Shown here piece by piece: positions 7,081 through 63,988 of a stretch of DNA of 64,000 bases (positions within the stretch are counted from its first letter, which is position 1; each line of letters opens with the position of its first letter). The notes beneath the pieces are model-generated. The model saw only the letters and a program-made list of their open reading frames with translations. It did no database searches and was not told the origin of the DNA. The position numbers were made by a program, and so were the translations under genes. Source of the DNA: a phage; NCBI GenBank assembly GCA_026066175.1, contig GCA_026066175.1_4721.1. One strand, 5' to 3'.

Positions 7081-7095
7081 TAGGTAATATAGACC
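7081..7095 (-). promoter_or_regulatory. candidate phage early promoter motif (GGTCTATATTACCTA on the transcribed strand)
   Basis: Plus-strand TAGGTAATATAGACC; one of five copies of GTAATATAG(C/T)C, all placed so that TATATTAC reads toward a downstream minus-strand gene start. Confidence 0.45.
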
Positions 7096-13733: not shown

Positions 13734-14945
13734 TTAGGCGATTGGCTGCGGATTACCCTTGGCCTGCGGACCACGAACTTTTGTCGCGGTCAACTCTTCA
13801 TTTTTAAAGCCTGCTTCACGAGCAATACGTCTCGCTTCTCGCACGTCTAACGTTTCCGTTTCCGCTTTGGCTGAAGGCAGCATTGGGCGTCCCCGCAATT
13901 CAATGAATCTCGTCCATACGTCACCGTATAAACGGACCCGCTCTTTGTAAACAGAATAGTAGATATAACGTTTTCCGTCAGGAAATTTAGTCATTCCATC
14001 CGACTTTAAACGGTAATTGAGTAACGTAGTAGATATACCCATTTCTTCAGCGCAATCGACGGCCGAAAGGTACAACAGAGGTACATCATTTTCAGGAATG
14101 ACGACAATAGCACGTTTGTTGGTTGTCTTCTCCAACTCCAGGATACTATCTTCGACTTCTCGCCATGGCGTCTCATCAGTAACCCACTTAACTTGATAAC
14201 AACCATTAACGACAGGTTGGTTCTTGTCGTTAACGTACATCGACGCAGTGGATAACTTAACACCAATGTGATTCGCGAATTCAGTCAATGATTCGAAAAG
14301 ATGAATCTCTTTTGTTATCGTTGACCTTGCAATCACACCCTTACTTCCCGTATCCGTCAACGTTGCTAACTCGTATTTGGTGGGAATACGCCATGGTTCA
14401 TCGCCGTAATCTTTGCGGTACTGCTTACGTTCAGGAAACGCTCGCTGTTTGCCTCTATAGACACGATGATGAATGAAGTCGATATTCACACCAAGATCGC
14501 GTGCCGCTTCCGTCATGGATGGATATCTGGTTACAACACCGGTATCAACATCACGAACCTGAATAGGTTTACCGTAGGCAGCAATTGAACGTTTACGCAT
14601 GTTCATAATGCGAGCATGCTGATTGTTCTCTTTCTGCGTAACCCATTCAAGATTGTCATTCTCGGCGTTACCGTCGGGATCAAGGTAGTTATTAAGTCTG
14701 TTGCCGTCCTTGTGGTTCACATGGAGCAAATGCGCATCATCGATGTTACGGAACGTTAACATTAGAAGCCTGTGCATGGAACGGTAAACCAATGTTCCAT
14801 CGTGACCTCGAAACGAATAACGATAATACCCAGCAATGATGGTGGGCAAATATTCAAACTTCGATTCCTTGTTACGCAATGTTCCATCTATGGATATCTC
14901 CAGGAACGGGAATTCCGGTACGGTCTTAAATACCTTCTCACTCAT
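13734..14945 (-). CDS. HNH homing endonuclease with NUMOD-like DNA-binding repeats
   Basis: HVNHKDGNRLNN...NLEWVTQKENNQHA HNH motif near the N-terminus; three helix-turn-helix-like repeats (TEAARDLGV, TEFANHIGV, VDCAEEMGI). AAGAGGAA SD before the ATG and a TATATTAC-type motif ~45 nt upstream. Confidence 0.8.
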   Translation of the reverse strand: MSEKVFKTVPEFPFLEISIDGTLRNKESKFEYLPTIIAGYYRYSFRGHDGTLVYRSMHRLLMLTFRNIDDAHLLHVNHKDGNRLNNYLDPDGNAENDNLEWVTQKENNQHARIMNMRKRSIAAYGKPIQVRDVDTGVVTRYPSMTEAARDLGVNIDFIHHRVYRGKQRAFPERKQYRKDYGDEPWRIPTKYELATLTDTGSKGVIARSTITKEIHLFESLTEFANHIGVKLSTASMYVNDKNQPVVNGCYQVKWVTDETPWREVEDSILELEKTTNKRAIVVIPENDVPLLYLSAVDCAEEMGISTTLLNYRLKSDGMTKFPDGKRYIYYSVYKERVRLYGDVWTRFIELRGRPMLPSAKAETETLDVREARRIAREAGFKNEELTATKVRGPQAKGNPQPIA

Positions 14946-14985
14946 TGACTATATTCCTCTTGTGCAGTGAAACTAACTACACTTT

Positions 14986-14997
14986 CGTAATATAGCC
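14986..14997 (-). promoter_or_regulatory. candidate early promoter motif upstream of the HNH gene (GGCTATATTACG on the transcribed strand)
   Basis: Plus-strand CGTAATATAGCC in the 75-nt gap between the beta-like ORF stop and the HNH start. Confidence 0.4.
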
Positions 14998-15020
14998 TTA
15001 ATTCTGTTTACATTGAAGCC

Positions 15021-18000
15021 TTAATCATCTCTATCAGCAGCAGGTACTGCAAGTGCTGATGTACTCATTATTGACGAGCTACCATCCGTTTTCTCGTCGT
15101 AGGGTTTCGTTTCACCGTATACAGACACAATGTTTGCGTTAGGTGCGAGGTAAGCAGAAATACCTACGTCCCCACTATCCTTCGTACCTTCGGATACAAC
15201 ACCAATGTCCGACTTGTCGTACTCACGATCGCGTGCGCGTCGAAGCGATGTTTTCGAACGACCCCCGATACCGGTCATCGTTGCTTCTTCACCCTGCTTG
15301 ATATCCAGCATCGGGTTGGTTTCATCGATGACGATAGAAGCACTGTCGTCAAGGATTTGGTTCCAAACGCTCACCGGACTGATTGAGATCTTCTGTCGGT
15401 TGCCTTGGCTGCTGTTCTCGTTTTGACGAATAGCACCAACCAGATCCTTATACACCAACTCAGCGAACTTATCGTACGTTTTGAAGCGCTGGTAGTTCAC
15501 GTCGTTCGTGTTAGGTGCCCAATCGTCCAGAAGCAGTTCAACCGCACGTAATAACAACATGGCGAAATCAGTCGGTTCGCCCATGTTCTGTAATAACGTA
15601 CGACTTACCGGGTCGACGAAAAGACGCTCCATGAGTTCAAGTTCGCGAAGATGACGAACCTTAAGACCTGCACCATCGACAACGTTAAAATAGATATCCC
15701 GATTGTCGAAAGCACCTCGAGCGTAACCAATGTAGTTACGGTATTCGTTGAATCCGCCTAACAACAATGTCGTCATTCGATCATCTTTACTGAAGATCAA
15801 ACTTTCATCGTCGAAGCTCACCGCGAATTCATCCGATGCTAATCCCATACGAGAACCACGAGGTACCGTACGGTAGTTCGCTTTAAGATGTTCTAATAAC
15901 GGTGTAAGACCACCTAAGTAACTTAACACAACACCAACCGGAATACGTACGCCCATGAACTCAAGGTCAGCGGCTTCGATGGGCATCTTCGCGGCATTGA
16001 TACCGAAGAAATCAGGGAACGTTCCAACCGGCGTTGGGGTTTGATTCGGTTCGTAAACGTATAACTGATTCTGACCATCCACCGCCAGGAATTCGCCGTT
16101 GGTGTTTTTGGCGAACGTTAAGAATCCACCCGCCAGCTGTTCGGTGAATAAATCTTCACCGATGTGTTCCGGCAACGTTTTGATATCGAGGCGTATGTCC
16201 CAATCCGCAAATTGGATTTGGGTGTAGTTACGTGCAAGCACCGCGAAGTAATACGGAACTTTGACAGACGGATCAAAGACGTTACCACGTTTTAAGGTGG
16301 TTAAGGGCGAGGTTTTATCGTAATACATCGCTGTGAGTTGACGTGTTAACCAACGACCAGCATTATTAACCACGCGTTCTGAACGCTTAACGAACACCTT
16401 ACCGTAGGCGGTACTCAACGCAACTTCGGATGACGATACCTTTCTGATTGGTTTATCGACACGTTGTTTACGCATTCGATATTTAATGCCGTTAACGACA
16501 TAAATGCCGTCCTTACGAACCTTCGGTAACATCACCGGGAACGTGGTCGGAACACCGCCTACCGGAGCCAGCTTGATCGTGATGACCTGGTAATCACCCA
16601 TCACGTCAACAACATCTTCAACTTTATATCCGGTAACAGGATAGCCCGCTTGCTGCACCGCCACAACGGCTGCTGCGATGTCCTTTTGCATGACATGTTC
16701 GACGTAGTGTTTATCCCATACGGCAAGCGTCGATTTGCACAAGCTCTTATCAACGATAACGTCCGCTTCCGGCATCACCTTCTCAGGTGCTAATTTCGCG
16801 GCTTTTGGTTTAACCTCAACGTATTCAGCAAGCGTGAGTCCAGAACCGTCAGGTGCTTCAATTTCATGAATCGCGTCAGCGTTACGCATCGCTGCTTTAT
16901 ATTGAACGCCGCTTAATTGACCAGCATCCGCGAGGTCGCTTGCACGTACCAGCACTGCATCGGATAACGACTGAATATATTCACCGTGCGTTTTCGGTAA
17001 CGTTGCCGCATCGAAGACATCAACTTTTTCTTCCGGCATGTCATCGTTGACAACCTCAAAGAGATCATCGGTGATGTCTTGATCTTCGTCCGGTTGAAAA
17101 TCGGGCTGAACTTCAACGCCAGGGACTTCACGAACATCTTCAAACGCACGTTCAACAACCGCGTTCCATGCTTCAGCGTCGTCATCTTCATCCGATCCTC
17201 CGATCAACTCGCTTTCCAGTTCATCGGGGTCAAGAACGGTATCAAGGTCCTCACCGTTAGGAAGCACGACATCACGTTCATCGTACTCCGCATCGGGACT
17301 GTCTGCGAGAATATCACGCTCTTGACGAAGAACCTGCTCCTCTTCTTGTTTCTGTTCTTCTTCATTGGCGCTCTGCGACCACAGACGGGTTACCGCCATC
17401 ATCCAACGACGCTGGAACGTTTCAAGCGTTGTCTTATCAAGTTCCTCGCCTTCCTTCGCTAAACCCGAACGCCATTCTTCCATTAAACCAAGATTCAGAG
17501 TAAAGAAATAGACGCCGTCCGTAAATACAACGTTAAGCTTATCCAGCGAAGCACGGTCCAATGATACCATCGTGCTGTTCTCACGATCGACACCTAACCA
17601 ACGGAAGAAGTCAAAGAACGACAGCTCCTCGGAGGTGGCAAAATTCATGAGGTTATTACGGGTTGGGGCTTGTTGTGTCGTACGCATCAACGATATCTTC
17701 GGTAACGTCGACGGGATACGGAATAACAAGAACTGCTGACGGTCGCTTTGTTGGGCGATCTCGTTTGCTTGCGTCCAAATCGTTTTACGCACGTTGAACC
17801 ATTCATCATACCAACGGGTCAGTGTCGGACGATAGATGTACATGTGGTTAAGATGCGCATAGTTAGCCACGATCTGGGCGTTGATGTTCTTCTCAACCTT
17901 GCTAAGATCGGTGACCAAACGAAAACGACGATGCGATGCACGGTAATCCAGTTTCGCACGCGGTAGCTGGAATCGCTGATCGCGTCGAGGTGCGCCTTGC

Positions 18001-31236: not shown

Positions 31237-31249
31237 GGTAATATAGTCC
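31237..31249 (-). promoter_or_regulatory. candidate early promoter motif (GGACTATATTACC on the transcribed strand)
   Basis: Plus-strand GGTAATATAGTCC, ~90 nt upstream of the minus-strand start at 31146, in a divergent intergenic region. Confidence 0.4.
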
Positions 31250-44345: not shown

Positions 44346-44357
44346 AGTAATATAGCC
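44346..44357 (-). promoter_or_regulatory. candidate early promoter motif (GGCTATATTACT on the transcribed strand)
   Basis: Plus-strand TAAGTAATATAGCCGTGAAA, ~30 nt upstream of the start at 44315; the same 20-mer recurs at 59607-59626. Confidence 0.45.
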
Positions 44358-52919: not shown

Positions 52920-52957
52920 ATCCTCCTTCCCTAGCCATCAGGCCGGGGAAGGAGGAT
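52920..52957. terminator. GC-rich hairpin, same arms as 5375-5412 with reverse-complemented loop
   Basis: ATCCTCCTTCCC-TAGCCATCAGGCCG-GGGAAGGAGGAT preceded by A12 and followed by TTATGGTTTATTTA, the same flank as the 5375 copy. Confidence 0.6.
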
Positions 52958-52970
52958 TATGGTTTATTTA

Positions 52971-53360
52971 TTAACGGATTGCGTTTTGGATGATTTCTTT
53001 TCCGATCGTAATCAAAGCAGGTATCTGTACTGCGGTTGCACCTTGATGACGAAACGCGGTCGCTAACGCGGTATCGATGCTCACAGCACGTCCGTGAAGA
53101 CGATCGAAATAGACTTGAGTGATAGCAGCGGCATACTCTTTTCGCTGTTTCTTGGTTTGGTTTACCATCGTCGCACTACTACCGACGATGAAATAAGCGA
53201 TTAAGAAGAATGCGGCTGACCGTGAGCCGGGTAGAAAGCCTTGGCGTTTAGGAAGCATTTCACAATCACGAACAGTAATACTGTTCGTGAGCTTTTCCAT
53301 GTCGACATGGCATAATTTTGCATAGGTGTGAAGATGATGGGTAAAAGTAGAATTTAACAT
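52971..53360 (-). CDS. hypothetical protein with one hydrophobic helix
   Basis: 129 aa ORF with GAGGAAAGAA SD; last gene of the minus-strand operon that starts at 59523. Confidence 0.55.
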   Translation of the reverse strand: MLNSTFTHHLHTYAKLCHVDMEKLTNSITVRDCEMLPKRQGFLPGSRSAAFFLIAYFIVGSSATMVNQTKKQRKEYAAAITQVYFDRLHGRAVSIDTALATAFRHQGATAVQIPALITIGKEIIQNAIR

Positions 53361-53464
53361 TTCTTTCCTCGGTTACAATGAGTTCAATGTATGGCGTAAA
53401 CGTCACAGAACGACGTATAACAGTTTGTTTTGATTTCTAAGGTGTTTCCCTATCTAAGAGTGAA

Positions 53465-53827
53465 TTAAAGCGTTCTGAAGAGTTCTGTGGCGTTCTCAGC
53501 ATGTAAACATGCTTCGTTCAACAACTCCGCTAACAACTTCGATCTAACTTCAACGAATGTCCTGGTACGATGCTCCCAGTCTAAACGGATGGTGTAAGTA
53601 TCATCCATGTTTCTGTGGTCAACAACAGATGTTGAACAACGTGTTTCTTGTTTATTCACAGCACTCCAGACATCACGGATAATCTTCATGCCTTTCTTGG
53701 TGCACGTAAACGTCAAGATACAACGATTATTCGCTGCTTCTTCACAAACGTGAATAAATTCGCTTCGTAGCGATGAGGTCTTGGTCAATCGATCGATAGC
53801 AAGCGATAACCCAATACGTTGTTGCAT
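53465..53827 (-). CDS. small paralog family A protein (120 aa), unknown function
   Basis: Shares LTFTCTKKGMKIIRDVW with FTFVCTALGKTLLEAAFW (53829..54242) and LGFVFSQTGKDVLENIFW (54258..54701). Confidence 0.55.
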   Translation of the reverse strand: MQQRIGLSLAIDRLTKTSSLRSEFIHVCEEAANNRCILTFTCTKKGMKIIRDVWSAVNKQETRCSTSVVDHRNMDDTYTIRLDWEHRTRTFVEVRSKLLAELLNEACLHAENATELFRTL

Positions 53828-53828
53828 A

Positions 53829-54242
53829 TCAAATTCCTTCTTTCAAAATCTCATTAAGGCCGTCTGCAACCGCGTCCAAATGGGCATCCATATCCGTTAC
53901 GGTGCCAGCGGTAACTGTCCAGACGTGCCGTATTAATGTCTCACCATTCGTACATTTTACCATTTCCATCGCCAACTTTGTTTGTCCTGACGATGGTGAG
54001 ATCTCATTGCTCCGCCAAAACGCAGCCTCGAGTAATGTTTTACCTAACGCTGTACACACAAAAGTAAATTCTACTTGACCAATACCTACCACCGAAGCGG
54101 ATAACGGTTGGATATGTTCGCGCAGCTTATCATCTTCACGTAGGAGCAGCAGTGTACGATGTAAGTGTGTACGGTGGGTAACAATAGCGTCGTAATGACC
54201 GATGCGTACATCGGCTACTGATTCAGGCCAGTTAATTTTCAT
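53829..54242 (-). CDS. small paralog family A protein (137 aa), unknown function
   Basis: See shared motif F-x-F-x-x-T-x-x-GK-x-[LI]-[LI]-x-x-x-[FV]-W; starts 2 nt after the upstream gene. Confidence 0.55.
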   Translation of the reverse strand: MKINWPESVADVRIGHYDAIVTHRTHLHRTLLLLREDDKLREHIQPLSASVVGIGQVEFTFVCTALGKTLLEAAFWRSNEISPSSGQTKLAMEMVKCTNGETLIRHVWTVTAGTVTDMDAHLDAVADGLNEILKEGI

Positions 54243-54257
54243 GTTCGATTCCTCGTA

Positions 54258-54701
54258 TTAACACTGTGTTCCATTCGATAAGCGGGTGGTATCAAAACGA
54301 TCCAGTTGGTGTACAATGCTATTAGCAACACGATGCAAATAGTGTATTTTGTCCATTCGTGAAATCGCAGAAATCGTCCAGCAAGCCTCTGACGTCCAAT
54401 AGGTGCCGTCTTCACTAAGGCTAACGTTATAAACTAACTTCGTCATCACATTTCTCGCCTTATGCTCAGCAGACCAGAATATGTTTTCTAACACATCCTT
54501 CCCCGTTTGTGAAAACACGAACCCAAGCTTCACGTCGAAGTCGGATGCTTCAAGATTAACAAAGTGAAGATGATTCTCCAAAGGCGCAAAAGAGGCTAAA
54601 CGTTCCAGCGCGTTTTGCAGCGTGGGATGATCGAGCTTTTCGAGATCATCCACAGGTTGTTCAGGTACAATCGCGATCGATTTACAGAATTTAATTTCCA
54701 T
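54258..54701 (-). CDS. small paralog family A protein (147 aa), unknown function
   Basis: Shared motif as above. Confidence 0.55.
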   Translation of the reverse strand: MEIKFCKSIAIVPEQPVDDLEKLDHPTLQNALERLASFAPLENHLHFVNLEASDFDVKLGFVFSQTGKDVLENIFWSAEHKARNVMTKLVYNVSLSEDGTYWTSEACWTISAISRMDKIHYLHRVANSIVHQLDRFDTTRLSNGTQC

Positions 54702-54731
54702 GGTAGGTTCCTCTTGATAGATGGTAGTAAC

Positions 54732-54751
54732 GGGGATACCGCGGTATCCCC
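54732..54751. promoter_or_regulatory. perfect 20-bp palindrome GGGGATACCGCGGTATCCCC within the operon
   Basis: Read directly; in the 57-nt gap between 54759..55229 and 54258..54701. Confidence 0.4.
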
Positions 54752-54758
54752 TAAGTCT

Positions 54759-55229
54759 TTATAACACGCCCCAAGCCATATTGGGTACAGGCTCGTTACG
54801 TTCGATGTAATACATCAAGCGTTCTTTAAGTTTGGTTAACGCCTCAGCAACGATGTTCTCCATGGCAATCACCTTTCCAATGTAATCCATGGTATCCTGC
54901 CACGTAAACCATTCGACGGTATTGACGATGTAAAGGGTTTCATCGTCGTCGGTCATGACCTTGGCATTTTCACGATGATCGCGGGTCGCGTATAACGGTG
55001 TTTTTAGATTCGCTCTGATACGTACCCAGAGCTTCTCCAGGAAATCGCTCGGTTGACTATCTGTCGTGATGATAAGTTCACTCCGTACTGAACGCTCTCC
55101 ACGCTTTTCAATAACAAGTAAACCATCGTAAGTGATGTTCATCAAGTTACGAAGGTCATCATTGCTATTCCAGTCTTTTACAACAGCAGGAAGTTGGCTA
55201 TTGTACTCTTCAGGTAATCTCTTAAGCAT
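54759..55229 (-). CDS. hypothetical protein
   Basis: 156 aa ORF; 8-nt overlap with the upstream gene. Confidence 0.55.
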   Translation of the reverse strand: MLKRLPEEYNSQLPAVVKDWNSNDDLRNLMNITYDGLLVIEKRGERSVRSELIITTDSQPSDFLEKLWVRIRANLKTPLYATRDHRENAKVMTDDDETLYIVNTVEWFTWQDTMDYIGKVIAMENIVAEALTKLKERLMYYIERNEPVPNMAWGVL

Positions 55230-55674
55230 CGGTTTCTGCTCCTATATCACGTTTGAGTTCGGCGACCAGTTTGTCGTAATGGTCTTTTATCACATTCGCC
55301 ATAACGAATTGCGCTTTTCTCACTAGCTGCTCATTGGCATCACTGAATGTAAAATACTCTCGCACTTCAACCGGATGTGATACGCCACCGATATCGTAGG
55401 CTTTATTCGATGTGCGTTGAGCGATCACTGGGAGCGGTTTCGCGGCGTTCAGCGCAGTACAGATTTCCGTAACGAGTTCTTGAATTTGGCTTTTCCCTTC
55501 GATGATAACGCTGCAACGATAAACATCCACCTCGTTAAGTTGTTCAACAACATCCGCCTTGATTTTGAATTGACCTACAAGCGCGCTTACTAAAGTGCGG
55601 TGCCAATTGTTCACCACTCCAACCAGCAATGGATGATTCTCAAGATCTCTTCTGTTCATTTCTGAGCTCCTCAA
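55222..55674 (-). CDS. hypothetical protein
   Basis: 150 aa ORF. Confidence 0.55.
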   Translation of the reverse strand: MRSSEMNRRDLENHPLLVGVVNNWHRTLVSALVGQFKIKADVVEQLNEVDVYRCSVIIEGKSQIQELVTEICTALNAAKPLPVIAQRTSNKAYDIGGVSHPVEVREYFTFSDANEQLVRKAQFVMANVIKDHYDKLVAELKRDIGAETDA

Positions 55675-55697
55675 TCGCTCTATAACAAACTTTTAGA

Positions 55698-55720
55698 GGA
55701 AGGGAATATGTTTCCCTTCC
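55698..55720. promoter_or_regulatory. hairpin GGAAGGGAA-TATGT-TTCCCTTCC within the operon
   Basis: Perfect 9-bp inverted repeat in the gap between 55739..56014 and 55222..55674. Confidence 0.4.
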
Positions 55721-55738
55721 TTGAGTTAGTTTATTGCG

Positions 55739-56014
55739 TTATACAACTTTTCTGTGCGCGTAGAACACCTTCGTTCCGTTGTTGATCGCCTCAACCACAT
55801 CCAGGGTTAACACAACGGCGTTATCGCTTCGCGACGACGGTGCGTAATACCCTTCACCGTTCTCGGTAATCAGGCGATAACGGACTAAGCCTATACATGG
55901 TTCAACGCGTACCACTCTTTCGAGTTTGTACTTGATGATCTTCGTCAGGCCGATAGTCTCTGATGCGTAGATGGCTTTATAAACTTTGTTCTTTGCTGTC
56001 GTTTTCATCAACAT
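55739..56014 (-). CDS. hypothetical small protein (start uncertain)
   Basis: ORF track 55739..56083 overlaps the 3' end of 55977..56873; trimmed to an internal ATG (MLMKTTAKN...), leaving ~38 nt of overlap; weak SD. Confidence 0.4.
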   Translation of the reverse strand: MLMKTTAKNKVYKAIYASETIGLTKIIKYKLERVVRVEPCIGLVRYRLITENGEGYYAPSSRSDNAVVLTLDVVEAINNGTKVFYAHRKVV

Positions 56015-56873
56015 GGTTTCTGTTTTCCTTGGTTTGTTGTGGTCCCAGGTCAGAGATATCCCAACGGATATAACCAACATCACGGATTCGCTCGGCTATT
56101 TCTTCGAATTGTGAATCACGACTGATAACCGGTAACCATTCCCCTTCTCGGGTTATCTTAACTTCGGCGATCTGTAAGCTCATGTTCCAACGAACGTCAT
56201 AAACCAGCGCGTAACCAAGAGGATGAACAAGCCCATCCTGGTTATACATCTTCAAAAGACCTCTTACGTCTTCGCTGCGCGGTAATTCCGCCATAGCAGG
56301 ACGTACACGTTGAAGTCTCTTTGTGGTATCGTATCCTAGCTCAATATCTTTCCAGCCCGTCATGACGTAAGGAACAACGTTGCGGCGACGGAGTTGATGG
56401 TTGTGAGTGGTTTCTTCGGCGGTAAGGTGTACCCAACCGAGATCGCTGTACGCCACGAACCGCGCTCCTTCTCCATCGAGCACTGTGTGCTCATCTAACG
56501 CTGCTGCAACACCATGGCCTGCGTAATACGGCGGAAGAACGTTCAGCATTTTAATACGGCTTTCTTGACCGGTATGGTCAGGGTCGATATGCGCGTAGTA
56601 ATAATTACGGCTTACCGGACGACCTTCCGCCATACGTCCACGGAAGACAGGGTCCTGCATTCCAAGCGGATGGTAATACGCGAGCTGTTGTTCGTCACCT
56701 TCCCCGATGACCAACAAACGATCTTCACGACTTGGTGTGCTAGGATCTTTCACCGTGATGTAGGTAACAATCACTTTCAGATTGTCTAAAATGTCCTGTG
56801 GAAGTTTCTCTAAATCCCGTGCGTCGTAAATACGATTAACAACAACGTTTGCAATGTGTTTTGGTAAGCTCAT
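55977..56873 (-). CDS. paralog family B protein (298 aa), unknown function
   Basis: Shares blocks with three upstream paralogs: AYYHPLGMQDPVF, GWVHL, VVPYVMTGWKD, KRLQRVRP, GLVHPLGYALVYDVRWN, WLPVIS, GYIRWDISDL. Confidence 0.6.
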   Translation of the reverse strand: MSLPKHIANVVVNRIYDARDLEKLPQDILDNLKVIVTYITVKDPSTPSREDRLLVIGEGDEQQLAYYHPLGMQDPVFRGRMAEGRPVSRNYYYAHIDPDHTGQESRIKMLNVLPPYYAGHGVAAALDEHTVLDGEGARFVAYSDLGWVHLTAEETTHNHQLRRRNVVPYVMTGWKDIELGYDTTKRLQRVRPAMAELPRSEDVRGLLKMYNQDGLVHPLGYALVYDVRWNMSLQIAEVKITREGEWLPVISRDSQFEEIAERIRDVGYIRWDISDLGPQQTKENRNHVDENDSKEQSL

Positions 56874-56953
56874 TTTAGATCTCTCTTTGTTATTGGTAAA
56901 ATAAATAACGGCATAAAGGGGACATAACTGCCCCCGTGTTAAATATCAACTGT

Positions 56954-57796
56954 TCACGCTTTCAGATCTGAAATATCCCAACGTACGTAACCGGTACGCT
57001 CAATGTCGTCAACCAGTTGCTTGGTTTGATTTTCAACACCAACGACAGGCACCCAATTTAAACGCCAGCGCCCACCGACATTAACCTCAACACGCTGCAG
57101 ATCTTCATTCCAACAAACCCCATTCGGTCTCAAAAAGCCCATCGGGTGGACGAAGTCCTCATCGTAATCTTTCAATAGCGCGAGAATATCGCTTCGGCTA
57201 TAAGTCTTCACGCTTGCTAGATGTACGCTTTGTAGCTTATCGCGCAGACCCCAACCATACTCACAATCACGCCATTCAGGCATGACAACCGGCAGTACAT
57301 TCCGATGACGGATGTATTTTGCCGCTTCAGCAATATCAGCTGGAAGATGTATCCAACCTAAATCGCTGTTAGCAATAAAATCAGGACTGTCCATTTCATG
57401 GATGTAATGATCGTAAAGCGTAGCAGCGAGTCCTTCAGCAAGCACGTTTGTTGGAAGGAGGCAGTTGGCGCTTATCTTGAAATCGAATACATCGGCATCA
57501 GGATCCACATACGCGTAAAACCCGCGTGCGAAAGCGCCGCCATGTTCTTTGAAGCAGTACTGGAATACATTGTTTTGCATTCCGATGGGGTGGTAGTAAG
57601 CCAACACACGTTGTTCGCCGTCCGTGATTTCAATGAGCTGATCTTTCGGCTTCGGCCAGGTGATCTTCTCAACACCGCAAACGCTGACGATCTTTCGTAG
57701 ATTCACCTTGATATGTTCCGGGAGATGCCCGATTTCATTTTCATGATAAACACGGGTGATAACGGTATTGATAACCGGCTGTGGTTTAGCTATCAT
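56954..57796 (-). CDS. paralog family B protein (280 aa), unknown function
   Basis: AYYHPIGMQNNVF, GWIHL, VLPVVMPEWRD, DKLQSVH, FVHPMGF, WVPVVG, GYVRWDISDL; GAGGAA SD. Confidence 0.6.
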   Translation of the reverse strand: MIAKPQPVINTVITRVYHENEIGHLPEHIKVNLRKIVSVCGVEKITWPKPKDQLIEITDGEQRVLAYYHPIGMQNNVFQYCFKEHGGAFARGFYAYVDPDADVFDFKISANCLLPTNVLAEGLAATLYDHYIHEMDSPDFIANSDLGWIHLPADIAEAAKYIRHRNVLPVVMPEWRDCEYGWGLRDKLQSVHLASVKTYSRSDILALLKDYDEDFVHPMGFLRPNGVCWNEDLQRVEVNVGGRWRLNWVPVVGVENQTKQLVDDIERTGYVRWDISDLKA

Positions 57797-57836
57797 TTAT
57801 CGTTTCCTCTTCGTTTTGTGGTTATTGATATTCGTA

Positions 57837-58703
57837 TTACGGTTTAAGATCTGCGATGTCCCAGCGGACATAGCCAACACGTTCGATTTCGCGAGCAAGG
57901 TCTTCGTTGTGAACGTCTACCCCAACAACAGGTAACCAGTTCCCATCTTTGCTGATCTTCACATGAACGATGTTTTGCGAAGTGATGAACTGATTAACAT
58001 CGTGCACCAACGCATAGCCTAACGGATGGATAAAGCCTTCAGCGCAGCATGAATCACGAAGAACGCTCAACATGTCGACGGCTGAAGGGCTAACGCAACG
58101 GACAGGGCGTACGCTTTGCAATTTGTCGGATGCCGCTTGGGCAACGCGTGCATCACGCCATCCCGTCAAGTATACCGGTTTTATATCCCGTTTTAGTAGA
58201 TGTTCGATCTGGATCGCTGTGTCATTATGAACATACACGCAGCCCTGTTCGGTTTCGGTGTCGTAGTCACCTTCATTAAACGCGTTTATTCGGGCAGGAT
58301 AAACCTTCTGGTCTATCGTCACGGCAACCCCTTCAGCGAATGTGGTCAACGGAAGAAGACGTTCTAAACACGCGATTGGATAATCCGCTGATGCTCCAGG
58401 ACGAATATGCGCCAGCATTCCCCAACCATCAGGGAATCCATGTCGGTACATGTATTGCTGGAATACCTCATCCTGCATTCCTAACGGGTACCAGCGTGCA
58501 AGCCGCTGCTGCTCACCGTCCTGAATAACAAAAAGCATTTCTTTGCGTTTAGGCCAGCGGTGATGTTCTACGGCCAAGCCCTCAACGATCGGTTTCAAAT
58601 TGGCTTTGATATGCTCAGGAAGTTGATCCACCTCTTCACGACGATAAATACGATCGATGAGGGTAACGTCGATCTTCTGGCCCATCATCTGCATTAAACT
58701 CAT
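57837..58703 (-). CDS. paralog family B protein (~288 aa), unknown function
   Basis: ORF track 57837..58844 trimmed to ATG (MSLMQMM...) with AGGAG SD; ARWYPLGMQDEVF, PVYLTGWRD, DKLQSVRP, FIHPLGYALVHDV, WLPVVG, GYVRWDIADL. Confidence 0.6.
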   Translation of the reverse strand: MSLMQMMGQKIDVTLIDRIYRREEVDQLPEHIKANLKPIVEGLAVEHHRWPKRKEMLFVIQDGEQQRLARWYPLGMQDEVFQQYMYRHGFPDGWGMLAHIRPGASADYPIACLERLLPLTTFAEGVAVTIDQKVYPARINAFNEGDYDTETEQGCVYVHNDTAIQIEHLLKRDIKPVYLTGWRDARVAQAASDKLQSVRPVRCVSPSAVDMLSVLRDSCCAEGFIHPLGYALVHDVNQFITSQNIVHVKISKDGNWLPVVGVDVHNEDLAREIERVGYVRWDIADLKP

Positions 58704-58770
58704 TTTTATTTCTCCTGCTGTTTTACGATGCATCGTTTTGCTCCTGTGGTTCTTTGTTTTCGGTATCGTG

Positions 58771-59523
58771 TTATGCCTGGCGTAGCATGGTAACGTCCCA
58801 TCGTACCAGCTTGCTTCGCTCAAGCATCCCCTGCGCATGCGCAACGCTTAAGTCCGACGGCACCACCACCGGCAACCAACGTTCGTTAAGCACCTTCGCT
58901 TCCAGCCGCTGCTTGCGTTTGTTGTAACGCACCTCGCTAACCCATGCATAACCGAAAGGATGGATAACCCGTAGGTAGTAACGTTTCAGCATGGCAAGAC
59001 GTTGCTGATAAAGCATATCGGAACCTGCGCTGACGAACAAGGCCACCCGTTCCAACCGCCTGGTGTAATACGTTCCAACGGTATGGTTGATCCAACCCGG
59101 AAGCACCAGTTCATCAGGCGTATCCGCCCATGAGGTATCGTGCACCTCACCGCTATACACCGTCCCAGTCACCTGGCCCGATGCGTCCAACAACGACCGT
59201 GGTAAATCATCCGCGGTAGGATACAACCATGCATCATCAAGTCGCTCCCCCGATGCAAGCACGCGTAACCCGCTTGCGCTTACCCGCGATGGATGCTGGC
59301 TCTTATGCGCACGCAATGACACCACAGACAGATCCGTTGGATGAGCAAGACAACACCCCCGCTGACGGAATAACCCAACCGTACCATCCACCCCTTCGAT
59401 CATGCTTCCTTCCAAACCGTCCCACCAGTAGTTTACCTGCACGCATTCTGCTTTCACTGCCTCAGGCAACAGTAAATAGTCACGTTCAATGAACACGGTA
59501 TCAAAAATGATTTTATCGCTCAT
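58771..59523 (-). CDS. paralog family B protein (250 aa), most diverged member
   Basis: VIHPFGYAWVSEVRYN, WLPVVV, LVRWDVTML align with the other three; AAGGAA SD; first gene downstream of the motif at 59608-59622. Confidence 0.55.
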   Translation of the reverse strand: MSDKIIFDTVFIERDYLLLPEAVKAECVQVNYWWDGLEGSMIEGVDGTVGLFRQRGCCLAHPTDLSVVSLRAHKSQHPSRVSASGLRVLASGERLDDAWLYPTADDLPRSLLDASGQVTGTVYSGEVHDTSWADTPDELVLPGWINHTVGTYYTRRLERVALFVSAGSDMLYQQRLAMLKRYYLRVIHPFGYAWVSEVRYNKRKQRLEAKVLNERWLPVVVPSDLSVAHAQGMLERSKLVRWDVTMLRQA

Positions 59524-59607
59524 GGATAAAGTTCCTTGTTTTCACGTTGTTTGATTAACGTACTGATTTCTATTTGACAGAAGACGAACATTGTACGCAT
59601 CTATCAC

Positions 59608-59622
59608 GTAAGTAATATAGCC
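59608..59622 (-). promoter_or_regulatory. candidate early promoter motif (GGCTATATTACTTAC on the transcribed strand)
   Basis: Plus-strand GTAAGTAATATAGCC, ~90 nt upstream of the start at 59523; 20-mer TAAGTAATATAGCCGTGAAA is identical to 44343-44362. Confidence 0.45.
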
Positions 59623-59734
59623 GTGAAAGGATTTGTATTACAGAAAGGATATTTGTTTTCTAAGAAGGGATGGTTACCAGGAAGGAGGTTATCGATAGGT
59701 GTATTTCAAGGAAGGTTTAAGAGGATAGGTATTG

Positions 59735-59905
59735 TTGTTTTGTTTATCTTAGTTTGTCTATGTATTCGTTTAATGTGTTATCTTAGTTTTAATGATCTTT
59801 TCAAAAGTGTTATCATGTTTATCTTAGGTTATATTTTAATTGCTTTAAGTTATTTGTTTTATCTATCTTGTTATCTTGTTTAAGTTGTTAATTGCTTATC
59901 TTCAA
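59735..59905. repeat. cluster of at least 8 direct repeats of TTATCTT(A/G) in an AT-rich noncoding region
   Basis: Copies read at ~59745, 59779, 59805, 59819, 59860, 59865, 59872, 59894; embedded in a ~800 nt region with no credible ORF. Confidence 0.5.
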
Positions 59906-60335
59906 AACAATGGATAACATGTGTTTACTACAACTTCAGTAACACATGTCATCTGTGCATTACACTACGTTACATGCTTATAATCAGATAACTCTAAAAA
60001 ACCATTTGTGATACTCTTCTTCACGTTGTTCATCAGAGTATCTCGTCTACACTTGCTTCGCGCGTATACGACATCACCGTTAACGCTAACGCTACGCTTA
60101 TAGCTTATAACTCTAAGGATAAAAACATAAACTCGCTTCGCTCGTTTAGTTTTTCTTTTTCTTAGAGTTATCCTGTTGCTCGTCTCTAAAGGACTTCGCT
60201 CCTCCCCCGTCCCCCGAAGGGGCCGAGGTCGTGGAAATTTTACTTTCCAAATACATTTACAACGTCTGTAAACTTTTACCGACACATACCTAATCTTATA
60301 TTTAAATATTAGAAAAAGAGAAAATACGAACATAA

Positions 60336-60367
60336 CCCTCCTCCTTCCCTGATGGGTTGGAGGAGGG
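60336..60367. terminator. GC-rich hairpin (CCCTCCTCC-TTCCCTGATGGGTT-GGAGGAGGG)
   Basis: Perfect 9-bp arms, immediately downstream of the stop of minus-strand gene 60385..61278. Confidence 0.55.
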
Positions 60368-60384
60368 GATAACAGTCTATTTAA

Positions 60385-61278
60385 TTAATCGGAAGTGTTA
60401 TAACCGAATACTGCTTTACCGTAGGTGTGAGTACCATCACTTAGTGACAATACCAATACGTGGTTATACGCATCGTTAACACCCTTGTCGGTAGAATCGG
60501 TGGTAACACCGTTGTAGACAAAGGTAGCTGATTGCAGATTGGTTTTCAGTTCATTGATGATATCATCACTTACACCAGTCTGCTCTTTAATCAGAGTAGT
60601 CAGGTTACCTGCTAAGCTTGCGTCGAGATTTACTTCGTTGCCAGTAATAGCTTGTAAACCTGAAGCGTAAGTACTGAAGTCTAACGGATAGGTTAACAGA
60701 CGTGCTGACGTTTTGGTACCATTGCCTTCATCAACGTAGGTTAAGTTACCCAGGTTGGTAACCTTGATGATGTTAGACAGATCCAGCGTTGTGTTATAAA
60801 CTTTAACTTGAACAGAACCATACCAAGCCAACGAATCTTCTTTGGCTTCCAGGGTAACGGTTTGGATACCTGACTGATCAAAGGTAACGGGATTAGATAA
60901 CGTTTCAGCTTTGATGTCTTTTGTTTTATCCAGGAACTTCTCGCCGGAAGGCGTAACCATACCGTAGCGTTGAGCTACGAGGTCGACCACGTCACCGATG
61001 GTGGTGTTTGCTTCAACACTAACGCGCACCGCGATCTTCTGGAACCATTTAGCCAGATCCAGACGATGATAGGTGACATCGCGGGTATTGAAGTACGGTG
61101 TACCATCACCCGGACTGAGTGTTAATGTTGCTGCACTATCAGAATCGCTTTTGGATTTAAGAACGTATTTGAGATCAGTGTATTTGAAACTGGCTCCCGT
61201 ATCGGCGTTAAGCTGGTTGATCTCATCAACGATAAGTTGCCACGGTGTTTTCAAAGTAAGTGATACTCGACTTGTCAT
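60385..61278 (-). CDS. hypothetical protein; distant paralog of 61420..61962
   Basis: 297 aa ORF with GAGGTAAAAA SD; segment GIQTVTLEAKEDSLAWYGSVQVKV resembles VGQVTLNAIENGLVYTGTLQVAL in the divergent neighbour. Confidence 0.6.
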   Translation of the reverse strand: MTSRVSLTLKTPWQLIVDEINQLNADTGASFKYTDLKYVLKSKSDSDSAATLTLSPGDGTPYFNTRDVTYHRLDLAKWFQKIAVRVSVEANTTIGDVVDLVAQRYGMVTPSGEKFLDKTKDIKAETLSNPVTFDQSGIQTVTLEAKEDSLAWYGSVQVKVYNTTLDLSNIIKVTNLGNLTYVDEGNGTKTSARLLTYPLDFSTYASGLQAITGNEVNLDASLAGNLTTLIKEQTGVSDDIINELKTNLQSATFVYNGVTTDSTDKGVNDAYNHVLVLSLSDGTHTYGKAVFGYNTSD

Positions 61279-61419: not shown

Positions 61420-61962
61420 ATGGCCTTAGACTTTAACAAAGCAGCGAAATCCCTTCTGCTCGATCTTATCAACACCAAAGCAACTCGCACACTGACCGAA
61501 GAAGAACTGCAGTTCGGTACTCCGGGGGCATCTTCCGAACATTCTAAGAACACCGTTATTCAGCTGGATGCTGCGGATGAAGCAGAAAACCTGCAGGGTA
61601 CTCAGCAGTTCTACTACGATCGTCTGGCTCTATCTGACGTTTTCGCTGATGTAACCGGCGATGTTACTTTCGAACTGCCGCACGGTACTGACAGCATTCA
61701 GGCTTCTGAGCTGGTAAGCAAGCTGGTCACCAAATTCGGCCTGGCTTCCCTGACCGGTGAAATCAAAGAAGAAACCTTCCAGCTGTCTGCAGGTACTGTT
61801 GGTCAGGTAACTCTGAATGCGATCGAGAACGGCCTGGTATATACCGGTACTCTGCAGGTTGCCCTGACCTATGCAGCAGCACCGAAAGACGAACTGGCAA
61901 CCGTTCTGGCGAATAACGTAGCTGAAGGTTTCGTGAAACCTGAAGTAGCTGTCGTTGGCTAA
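61420..61962 (+). CDS. hypothetical protein with strongly biased host-optimal-like codon usage (likely very highly expressed)
   Basis: 180 aa ORF with GAGGA SD; almost exclusive use of CTG, GGT, ACC, CCG, GAA, AAA, CGT codons, unlike neighbouring genes. Confidence 0.65.
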   Translation: MALDFNKAAKSLLLDLINTKATRTLTEEELQFGTPGASSEHSKNTVIQLDAADEAENLQGTQQFYYDRLALSDVFADVTGDVTFELPHGTDSIQASELVSKLVTKFGLASLTGEIKEETFQLSAGTVGQVTLNAIENGLVYTGTLQVALTYAAAPKDELATVLANNVAEGFVKPEVAVVG

Positions 61963-63031: not shown

Positions 63032-63988
63032 TCAGGCAACCAGTTTACCGGTGCGTGCCCATTGCAACGCTTCCTCGATGGTAGCGTAACCACAACCTAA
63101 CATGAACGCGTAACTTGTTAATACGTCGTTAGGCATCCTACCATGTGAGCTAGGGTCGTACACAAGCAAATCGGATCGTTCAAAATACCGTCTTACAGCC
63201 GACGCCGTACGCTGTGGATCAAGTCTGTTGAACGTACCAACGCCTAATTGCCTCAAGAACGATTCGATTTCACTGAATCGACTATCGCTTGCGTTATTAG
63301 GACCGTAGAACGACACACGGCTACGGGTGAAGTTATACAACCGGTTGCGTCCTGTTTGTACGTTGGTTAACCAGTTCCCACTGATCATCTGCGATGCCCA
63401 ACCAGGAACAGCATTCCCTTTCGCATTCATGACGTCGGTTGCCCAGCCAGGGAAGCCTCGCTCTTGACGATAAAGCGATAGTCCGATCACCGAACAGAAC
63501 CCGTAAGAACGTGCACTGTTAAGATCGCCGCAACAACCGAATGGGAGAAGACGATCGATGTATTGTTCGACCGGTATGGGTTGTTTAAGATCCAAATTGC
63601 GGATGTAGTTAGGCACGCCATCTTTAGGTTGGTCGGAGAAGTTAATCGAGGAAATTGCGACGTTTCTTCCGATCTGGCTCCAGGGTTTGTTCCTGGGGTC
63701 GATGGAACCGGGATCCATCATGATCGGTGTTAACCACCAATAATGACGACCACTATGTTTCTGTTTGCGGCTCCAGCAGTCAAGAAGGATAGCATCGATA
63801 GTACAACCACGATACTGCTGAAGTTTGGCACGTAAGTCAACACAGAAGATTTGAATCCCGTCGTTATAATACTCACCGCCCGGTTCATTCCCATAGCCCG
63901 TGGTTAGACCCGTCCATCGTGTCTGGTTGGTGTTCGCTACCGAACTATGTTTAACCCGATCGAATTTAACCCACACCCTAGCCATCAT
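63032..63988 (-). CDS. hypothetical protein (318 aa)
   Basis: ORF with AAGGAGGG SD at the window edge; no motif recognised. Confidence 0.6.
   Translation of the reverse strand: MMARVWVKFDRVKHSSVANTNQTRWTGLTTGYGNEPGGEYYNDGIQIFCVDLRAKLQQYRGCTIDAILLDCWSRKQKHSGRHYWWLTPIMMDPGSIDPRNKPWSQIGRNVAISSINFSDQPKDGVPNYIRNLDLKQPIPVEQYIDRLLPFGCCGDLNSARSYGFCSVIGLSLYRQERGFPGWATDVMNAKGNAVPGWASQMISGNWLTNVQTGRNRLYNFTRSRVSFYGPNNASDSRFSEIESFLRQLGVGTFNRLDPQRTASAVRRYFERSDLLVYDPSSHGRMPNDVLTSYAFMLGCGYATIEEALQWARTGKLVA

Follow-up and report, generated by a model that had tools for sequence, protein, structure and literature searches.

A clade-restricted gene family of variable copy number at the head of an early operon in Goslar-like nucleus-forming jumbo phages

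Four consecutive minus-strand genes (55977-59523) stand at the head of an early operon in a 64,000-nucleotide stretch of phage DNA (NCBI GenBank assembly GCA_026066175.1, contig GCA_026066175.1_4721.1); this whole stretch is called the window below. We propose that the four genes, here named B1 to B4, represent a family that is restricted to Goslar-like phages, expressed early, kept out of the virion and exchanged as modular recombination cassettes, and that its products act in the host cytoplasm as host-interaction effectors. To this statement taken as a whole we would assign a probability of about 0.5, and its descriptive part is much more secure than its functional part.

The genes of the array, in the order of transcription, are the following (aa, amino acids):

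58771-59523, minus strand: B4, the head gene, 250 aa
57837-58703, minus strand: B3, 288 aa
56954-57796, minus strand: B2, 280 aa
55977-56873, minus strand: B1, 298 aa, with an acidic/polar C-terminal tail of ~20 aa

Paralogy, taxonomic range and protein architecture

The four array genes are genuine paralogs. In BLASTP comparisons B1 matches B2 at 7e-61 (36% identity over 278 aa) and B3 at 8e-51, and B2 matches B3 at 2e-57 (37% identity), which makes B1-B3 full-length paralogs at 35-37% identity; B4 aligns with these three through its C-terminal ~110 aa alone (3e-10, 3e-8 and 4e-6; 28-31% identity). A preliminary description of the window had already proposed tandem minus-strand paralogs, each with its own Shine-Dalgarno (SD) site. 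The coordinates were confirmed, the shared blocks are significant in every pairwise comparison (8e-51 to 7e-61 among B1-B3, 4e-6 to 3e-10 for B4), and a purine-rich SD-like run precedes the ATG of each gene. The size range given there, ~250-335 aa, is right at its lower end, which is B4, and has to be corrected at its upper end, where the 335 aa belong to an over-extended open reading frame (ORF) of B3 that starts at a TTG and overlaps B4. The likely start of B3 is the ATG at 58703, with AGGAG 9 nt upstream, which alignment to relatives favours over the alternative ATG at 58733 (298 aa, likewise with AGGAG upstream). The sequence blocks that had been listed as common to all four genes hold for the C-terminus, where B1-B4 share G-W-[RKI]-[DN], [KR]L[QE]xV, HP[LMF]G[YF], W[LV]PV and RWD..L, but YHPLGMQ and W[VI]HL are found in only two or three of B1-B3. 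The four proteins also have an N-terminal LPE motif in common.

We identify the window phage as a diverged Goslar-like chimallivirus, that is, a nucleus-forming jumbo phage, because it is syntenic with Escherichia coli phage Goslar and encodes a phiKZ gp29PR-type protein. The synteny is exact, with the peptidoglycan hydrolase gene, two DUF7941 virion genes and a long noncoding gap on one side of the locus and gp20 to gp14 on the other. B4 is the syntenic ortholog of Goslar gp021 (HOV27_gp021, YP_009820706.1 / QBO63814.1; tblastn, 42% identity over 99%, 5e-48), which is annotated as a 'hypothetical protein'. Goslar gp021 has the same promoter and leader as B4 and lies, like B4, between the DUF7941 virion genes and the small gp20/gp19 genes. 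Unlike the array it is a single copy, with no counterpart of B1, B2 or B3, and its middle module cannot be aligned with theirs.

Searches well beyond this pair of phages returned the same clade. Among ~50,000 deposited phages, the one nucleotide match to the array is a 77-bp stretch of Goslar, and tblastn of these records gives Goslar as the only family match (B2 alone gives nothing in this collection). Word-seeded searches of 5.8 billion proteins yielded 24 and 15 relatives, all of them unnamed or 'hypothetical' and devoid of Pfam domains; where the carrying contigs are long, they measure ~238-250 kb, are Goslar-like and come from E. coli or Salmonella samples. When 1.84 billion cluster representatives were searched exhaustively with a HMMER profile, seven proteins only were found, all at E < 1e-30, with no distant relatives detectable, and the family was not found in complete E. 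coli RefSeq genomes. These results strongly support a protein family confined to Goslar-like nucleus-forming jumbo phages. The relatives compared below (L002 and L004-L009) were obtained by exact-protein look-up and DNA scan. Three of them, L002, L004 and L006 (GCA_025812035.1, GCA_027262755.1 and GCA_008102125.1), are complete-length Goslar-like contigs of 238-248 kb that lie within draft bacterial assemblies, the host isolates being E. coli (including O157) and Salmonella Kentucky, which suggests a carrier state, pseudolysogeny or co-culture contamination; complete E. coli RefSeq genomes contain none of these phages.

The family had been described as unrecognised, and our searches agree. B1-B4 have no significant match in Pfam, PHROGs, NCBIfam or PADLOC, none of 39 aligned members has a significant match in Pfam, a sequence profile search of the PDB gave noise only, and Foldseek fold searches of the PDB and BFVD, solved anti-defence proteins included, gave nothing significant. 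Several candidate assignments were rejected as noise: a GNAT-phage-like family (E = 0.22) and GTP cyclohydrolase I (E = 0.11), and, in PADLOC and NCBIfam, DruH (E = 0.012, 11.6 bits) and FabG (E = 0.023, 14 bits against a cut-off of 333 bits). Weak matches to LPD16 (PF18830) cover residues 106-159 of four B2-type orthologs (E = 0.0014-0.14, 12-19 bits), with a best score of 18.7 bits, under the gathering score of 27 bits, and with ~33-53 of the 82 profile positions covered. The match is absent for the window's own four proteins and for the B1, B3 and B4 types, and a literature search on LPD16 returned nothing relevant. Being sub-threshold and confined to 4 of the 39 members, all B2-type orthologs, LPD16 was rejected as a family assignment, though a remote homology to it may exist. 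In the literature searched we found no mention of Goslar gp21 by name, and the family is previously unnamed.

Family alignments indicate a layout in three parts. A conserved N-terminal segment of ~35 residues, consisting of a strand followed by an LPExIK motif, and a conserved C-terminal alpha/beta domain of ~110 residues, with an invariant W and the motifs HPxG, WxPV and (R)WD..L, enclose a variable middle of at least two types, in which the head type (B4 and gp021) cannot be aligned with the B1/B2/B3 type. Alignment of the 39 members defines 14 invariant residues besides the start Met (B2 numbering). Two of them lie in the N-terminal segment (L25 and P26) and the others in the C-terminal domain (W175, L188, V191, L208, H217, P218, G220, W248, V251, W273, D274 and L278), and only H217 and D274 are polar. 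The AlphaFold2 (AF2) model of B2 has a predicted local distance difference test score (pLDDT) of 79.8 and a predicted template modelling score (pTM) of 0.77, and its DSSP string contains beta-alpha-beta-beta-beta runs at residues 8-68 and 191-252; the order of secondary structure in the N- and C-terminal parts is the same in the AF2 model of B4. An internal duplication (YHPLGMQ against VHPLGYA) was considered and rejected, since hhalign of the N- against the C-terminal half matched four residues (HPxG) at a probability of 0.3. With masses of ~28-33 kDa, isoelectric points of 5.5-6.7 and a maximum 19-residue Kyte-Doolittle (KD19) hydropathy of 1.26, the proteins are, on strong support from their predicted properties, soluble, mildly acidic and free of membrane segments.

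Expression timing and virion packaging

One early-type promoter precedes the array, which continues into a series of small genes:

59601-59622, minus strand: early-type (virion RNA polymerase) promoter GGCTATATTAC-N5-TGATAG, the sole such site for the array
59524-59600, minus strand: 5' leader of the operon, with a small hairpin, UACGUU-N6-AACGUG, ahead of the SD site
52971-56014, minus strand: rest of the transcription unit, seven small genes of 91, 145/150, 156, 147, 137, 120 and 129 aa

Within the promoter, GGCTATATTAC occupies 59612-59622, 89-99 nt upstream of the B4 ATG, and the TATATTAC core occupies 59612-59619, 89-96 nt upstream. Exact TATATTAC sites occur five times in the window, always on the minus strand and always between genes (7084-7094, 14987-14997, 31238-31248, 44347-44357 and 59612-59622), with the extended consensus GGC-TATATTAC-N5-TGAxAG or, more loosely, G-N-C-TATATTAC-N5-TG(A/T)(T/A)(A/G). 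These five sites are probably the virion-RNA-polymerase early promoters of the window phage. When up to one mismatch is allowed, GNCTATATTAC has 9 matches against 3.06 expected, a count reached in 0 of 100 shuffles, and none of the one-mismatch matches falls within the array. The promoter site is kept at an equal distance in the relatives, and the counterpart locus of Goslar (14,100-15,900) carries the putative promoter motif CTACATTAC. Conserved AT-rich motifs have been described as virion-RNA-polymerase early promoters in jumbo phages with RNA polymerase genes of their own (PMC7598289); a literature search with the raw motif of the window was unproductive. Together, the ~200 bp of promoter and leader upstream of the head gene are 81% identical in the window, L002 and Goslar, against 42% for the proteins, and the leader hairpin shows no covariation, its sequence being invariant across the relatives. 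The preliminary description had placed the array just downstream of a sequence motif and a large repeat-rich noncoding region, and this placement stands (motif at 59612-59619, repeats within 59524-60384). Elsewhere in the window, the promoter site at 14987 drives a gene resembling NUMOD1 / I-TevI-type homing endonucleases (13734-14945).

The array and the seven small genes share one strand, are separated by short gaps or overlap, and have no internal early-type promoter. The seven are counterparts of Goslar gp19-gp14 plus one extra gene. They have no significant Pfam or PHROG match, and paralogy among them or to the B family was rejected, no BLASTP match being found at E <= 0.05. Because the entire 11-gene operon is thus orphan, the neighbours give no hint as to function. 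Three of the small genes (s156, s147 and s137) are mosaic like the B genes, with 39-100% identity between relatives. A strong hairpin with an 11-bp stem, GAGGAAGGGAA...TTCCCTTCCTT, occupies 55696-55722, in the interval between the gp19-like gene and the small gene that follows, and might act as a partial terminator or stabilise RNA within the early operon.

The expression and virion data available to us concern the Goslar ortholog of B4, not the window phage. Published RNA-seq of Goslar under knock-down of ChmA, which arrests infection at the stage of the EPI (early phage infection) vesicle, shows that the read counts of gp014-gp021 are kept (bioRxiv 10.1101/2023.09.20.558163, Supplementary Table 2), with log2 fold changes of +0.8 to +1.4 for these genes. 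For gp021 the reads were 889/995/927 in the control and 798/828/976 under knock-down, a log2 fold change of about +1.2 (Armbruster et al., bioRxiv 10.1101/2023.09.20.558163), and in the same data the flanking genes gp005-gp013 and gp022-gp036 are at log2 -3 to -7.5 (-3.5 to -6.8 for gp022-gp036), a decrease of ~30-fold for the virion genes on the flanks. Transcription of gp014-gp021 is therefore independent of the nucleus and gp021 is early, which, with the conserved and enriched promoter motif, upholds the earlier proposal that the array heads an early operon. Orthology with gp021 strongly supports transcription of the array genes from the EPI vesicle, in the first minutes after injection and ahead of nucleus formation.

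The preliminary description also allowed that the array might encode injected inner-body proteins, among which phiKZ-like phages carry families of tandem paralogs; the PF12699 proteins are such a family. Packaged proteins that form tandem paralog families are indeed known in this phage family (bioRxiv 10.64898/2026.04.21.720040), and the array adjoins virion genes of the DUF7941 family (60385-61278 and 61420-61962, the latter on the plus strand). However, gp021 is absent among the proteins listed by mass spectrometry of Goslar virions, which reach down to ~0.1 copies per virion (bioRxiv 10.64898/2026.04.21.720040, Table S4) and include gp016 and gp018, trace contaminants from the operon of gp021 itself. 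Moreover, the early, nucleus-independent expression of gp021 is unlike that of every flanking structural gene, and the B proteins have neither a PF12699 domain (for which Pfam gave nothing in the 39 members, even with E values up to 5 admitted) nor a DUF7941 domain (PF25613), to which the neighbouring genes do match. We consider packaging highly improbable; that the B proteins remain outside the virion is strongly supported through their orthology with gp021. The PF12699 inner-body family (Goslar gp53/gp58 and others) resembles the B family in being a multi-copy set of diverged, chimallivirus-specific paralogs of undefined function, but its members are late and packaged at hundreds to thousands of copies, whereas the B family is early and undetected in virions. 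Likewise, the DUF7941 virion fibre family consists of adjacent paralogs that are expanded in Goslar-like phages, but these are abundant late virion proteins of a recognised Pfam family, whereas the B proteins are unmatched and belong to the opposite temporal class.

Copy number, allele exchange and the upstream noncoding region

The locus takes one of three forms in the phages compared:

One copy (Goslar and L009): promoter, head gene, gp20, gp19
Three copies (L002, L004, L005, L006 and L008): promoter, head gene, gp20, middle gene, B1, gp19
Four copies (the window and the independent 27-kb contig L007): promoter, head gene, B3-type, B2-type, B1, gp19, with gp20 lost

No relative examined lacks a gene in the head slot, which holds one of two alleles at ~40% identity to each other. 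B4 has 76-96% identity to the head genes of L002, L005, L006, L007 and L009 and 40% to that of L004. Two alleles also alternate in the middle slot, at 37-46% identity to each other. The B3-type allele has 58-76% identity to the one gene in the middle slot of L002, L005, L006 and L008, and the B2-type allele is 94-95% identical to the genes of L004 and L007 and 37-46% identical to the middle-slot genes of L002, L005 and L006, so that the window holds both alternative alleles in tandem. B1 is the best-conserved member (82-96% in L002, L004, L005, L006 and L007) and is absent from Goslar and L009. The gp20-like gene (96-99 aa) is 82-99% conserved in Goslar, L002, L004, L005, L006, L008 and L009; in the window and L007 it is missing, and its slot (~58704-58770 in the window, 7669-7968 in L004) is taken by a full-length B3. 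The possibility that the gp20-like gene is the remnant of a B copy was rejected, as no similarity was found.

On the evidence of these comparisons, the locus is a recombination cassette site at which divergent alleles are swapped between conserved DNA anchors, and we propose that different phages carry one, three or four copies because of cassette recombination at these anchors. Between the window and L004 the flanking proteins are 99-100% identical and the head gene is 40% identical. Their DNA is homologous at 97.7% over 52922-57825, loses this homology over 57826-59434, which comprises B3 and most of B4, and regains it from 59435. The conserved anchor on one side consists of the promoter, the leader and the opening ~90 nt of the head gene, and that on the other side of the last ~200 nt of the head gene, which contain the 77-bp Goslar match, together with the downstream genes. 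Two chimeric proteins from relatives, P0008, a B2-type protein carrying the acidic tail of B1, and P0032, which joins a Goslar-type N-terminal part and middle to a B4-type C-terminus, point to recombination between paralogs and between alleles.

The ratio of nonsynonymous to synonymous substitution rates (dN/dS) within orthologous groups is 0.18-0.31 gene-wide and 0.11-0.52 by region, compared with 0.01-0.11 in the structural neighbours. Because these values are well below 1 in every region of every group, the B genes are real protein-coding genes under purifying selection. Positive selection was considered and rejected, all gene-wide and region-wise values being below 0.55. The diversity of the family comes from the shuffling of old alleles and not from rapid point change.

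Variation of a similar kind is seen close by. The short DUF7941 gene (61420-61962, plus strand) is 88-99% identical in most relatives and 52% identical in L007, whose neighbouring genes are at 90-100%, which suggests that one allele of a host-recognition fibre gene has been replaced by another. An orphan gene of 318 aa (63032-63988, minus strand), adjacent to the gene for the peptidoglycan hydrolase, occurs among Goslar-like loci only in L005 (62%). Its distant matches are in Salmonella phage SPLA10 and Serratia phage PCH45 (30-33%), and Goslar has a partial match at another position; here, too, the slot looks variable.

Upstream of the array, the 861-bp region 59524-60384 contains repeats and no conserved ORF. 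Read from the late DUF7941 gene, it consists of a hairpin, a conserved stretch of ~300 nt, a variable AT-rich stretch and the early promoter described above:

60336-60367, minus strand: G+C-rich hairpin I6, with 14-nt arms, a 4-nt loop and then a T-rich stretch, just past the DUF7941 stop codon
59990-60290, minus strand: ultra-conserved noncoding element of ~300 nt, 93-99% column identity
59743-59902, minus strand: variable AT-rich stretch (35% GC) with five AAGATAA repeats, between the element and the promoter

The I6 hairpin is probably a terminator that keeps late read-through out of the early operon. The element beyond it is more conserved than any neighbouring protein gene (alignment of seven phages, and a second alignment with eight usable rows, Goslar included), and in Goslar it is found at 15424-15736 of MK327938.1, unannotated, at 94% over 313 nt. 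We regard this stretch as noncoding because single-base indels in other phages break the frame of the 122-aa ORF that spans it in the window (59965-60333). Its conservation starts at GGTATGTG, which contains a TATG motif, described as the late-promoter/start-site motif of phiKZ (PMC7598289), and ends with a hairpin and T6; it also contains GCGAAGC-type mini-hairpins and one variable hairpin loop. The z-scores of its predicted fold are -4.25 on the minus strand and -4.09 on the plus strand. Rfam has no match in the intergenic region or the element, the element is single-copy in the window, and a literature search for chimallivirus noncoding RNAs was unproductive. It could be a structured noncoding RNA, or it could work at the level of DNA, for example as an origin or a packaging site; for the B family it is context rather than demonstrably a part. 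In the AT-rich stretch, the AAGATAA repeats look like iterons or regulator-binding sites; relatives have 3-6 copies at differing spacing, and GATAA has a background of ~2.1 per kb and strand across the window.

Possible functions and comparison with known early loci

Once a nucleus-forming jumbo phage has built its protein nucleus, it is shielded from DNA-targeting immunity. In the minutes before this, translation of the first mRNAs takes place in the host cytoplasm while the genome sits in the EPI vesicle. To our knowledge, almost nothing has been established about the accessory early proteins of this pre-nucleus stage. We hypothesize that the B proteins would act in the host cytoplasm during this vulnerable period as host-interaction effectors, in takeover or in counter-defence. 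In this mechanism the conserved scaffold would provide a common activity or bind a common partner, the variable middle module would determine target specificity, and extra copies would broaden the range of hosts or host factors that can be handled. The variable copy number and the swapping of alleles fit a host-takeover or anti-defence role. A bolder form of the proposal holds that the family has a new fold, with a scaffold carrying the invariant His and Asp and interchangeable middle modules aimed at host defence or housekeeping targets, that tandem alleles broaden host range, and that the array is a counter-defence locus tied to the pre-nucleus stage. This we put forward tentatively, as possible but well short of an even chance.

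Several observations weigh against an effector role. Nothing similar to a known host-takeover or anti-defence protein came out of the sequence searches or of the fold searches of the PDB and BFVD, and no gene or region has a dN/dS above 1, which means that there is no signal of an arms race by point mutation. The division into a scaffold and a specificity module draws on patterns of conservation and not on three-dimensional analysis, and the B4 model is the weaker one (pLDDT 64), its middle region, at a pLDDT of ~30, being effectively unmodelled. Just two invariant residues are polar, a pattern that neither supports nor excludes catalysis. Finally, of the array genes it is B4 alone whose ortholog in Goslar has been shown to be expressed early; Goslar has no counterpart of B1-B3.

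Other roles for the same genes have to be set beside the effector proposal. The proteins might serve the phage itself early in infection, in the transition from EPI vesicle to nucleus, in the regulation of transcription or translation, or as chaperones of early proteins. Co-expression with nucleus-building genes and the occupation of the head slot in every Goslar-like phage examined are in keeping with such a role. However, the family is undetectable outside Goslar-like phages, so that it is not part of the machinery shared by chimalliviruses, and the presence of one to four copies, with ~40%-identical alleles interchangeable on near-identical backbones, would be unusual for a part that has to fit conserved partners; we judge a phage-internal role unlikely. 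Somewhat more doubtful in our view is that the B proteins are enzymes with a small-molecule- or nucleic-acid-modifying activity that would use the invariant C-terminal His and Asp, either as distant relatives of LPD16 or with a distant fold of the vicinal oxygen chelate (VOC)/glyoxalase type. The invariance of H217 and D274 in 39 sequences, the paired beta-alpha-beta-beta-beta runs of the B2 model and the sub-threshold LPD16 matches of the four B2-type orthologs would suit this explanation, as would the VOC-superfamily proteins (glyoxalase, FosA/FosX, MCEE and HPPD) that make up ~10 of the 50 top Foldseek matches in the PDB. These matches are at noise level, and there was no significant superposition on paired beta-alpha-beta-beta-beta modules with metal-binding residues.

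That the genes are decaying duplicates or passengers without a current function is a far weaker contender. They are orphans of variable presence, and Goslar manages with one copy. However, all copies have intact ORFs and SD sites, dN/dS is low in every region of every orthologous group, as given above, and the four-copy arrangement was recovered in an independent sample (L007).

Jumbo phages have many orphan early families, of which the B family is one, and it points to no specific mechanism. Nevertheless, as the promoter-proximal family of an experimentally early operon, the array is a tractable set of candidates, and the natural one-, three- and four-copy variants, with two divergent sets of alleles on near-identical genomes, provide material for comparing host range and sensitivity to defence. 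Even if the family proves to be ordinary, it documents how cassette recombination at conserved anchors diversifies the early operons of Goslar-like phages.

Early accessory genes for host takeover or anti-defence occur in hyperplastic regions of large lytic phages, such as the plasticity regions of T4-type phages and the early operons of phiKZ. The B family differs from these in having no demonstrated target, no detected positive selection and no match to an anti-defence fold in the PDB. In its organisation the array nevertheless probably resembles them: like the T4-type and phiKZ early accessory loci, it is proximal to its promoter, made up of orphan genes, and subject to presence/absence and allelic variation among backbones that are nearly identical, by way of recombination at conserved flanks.

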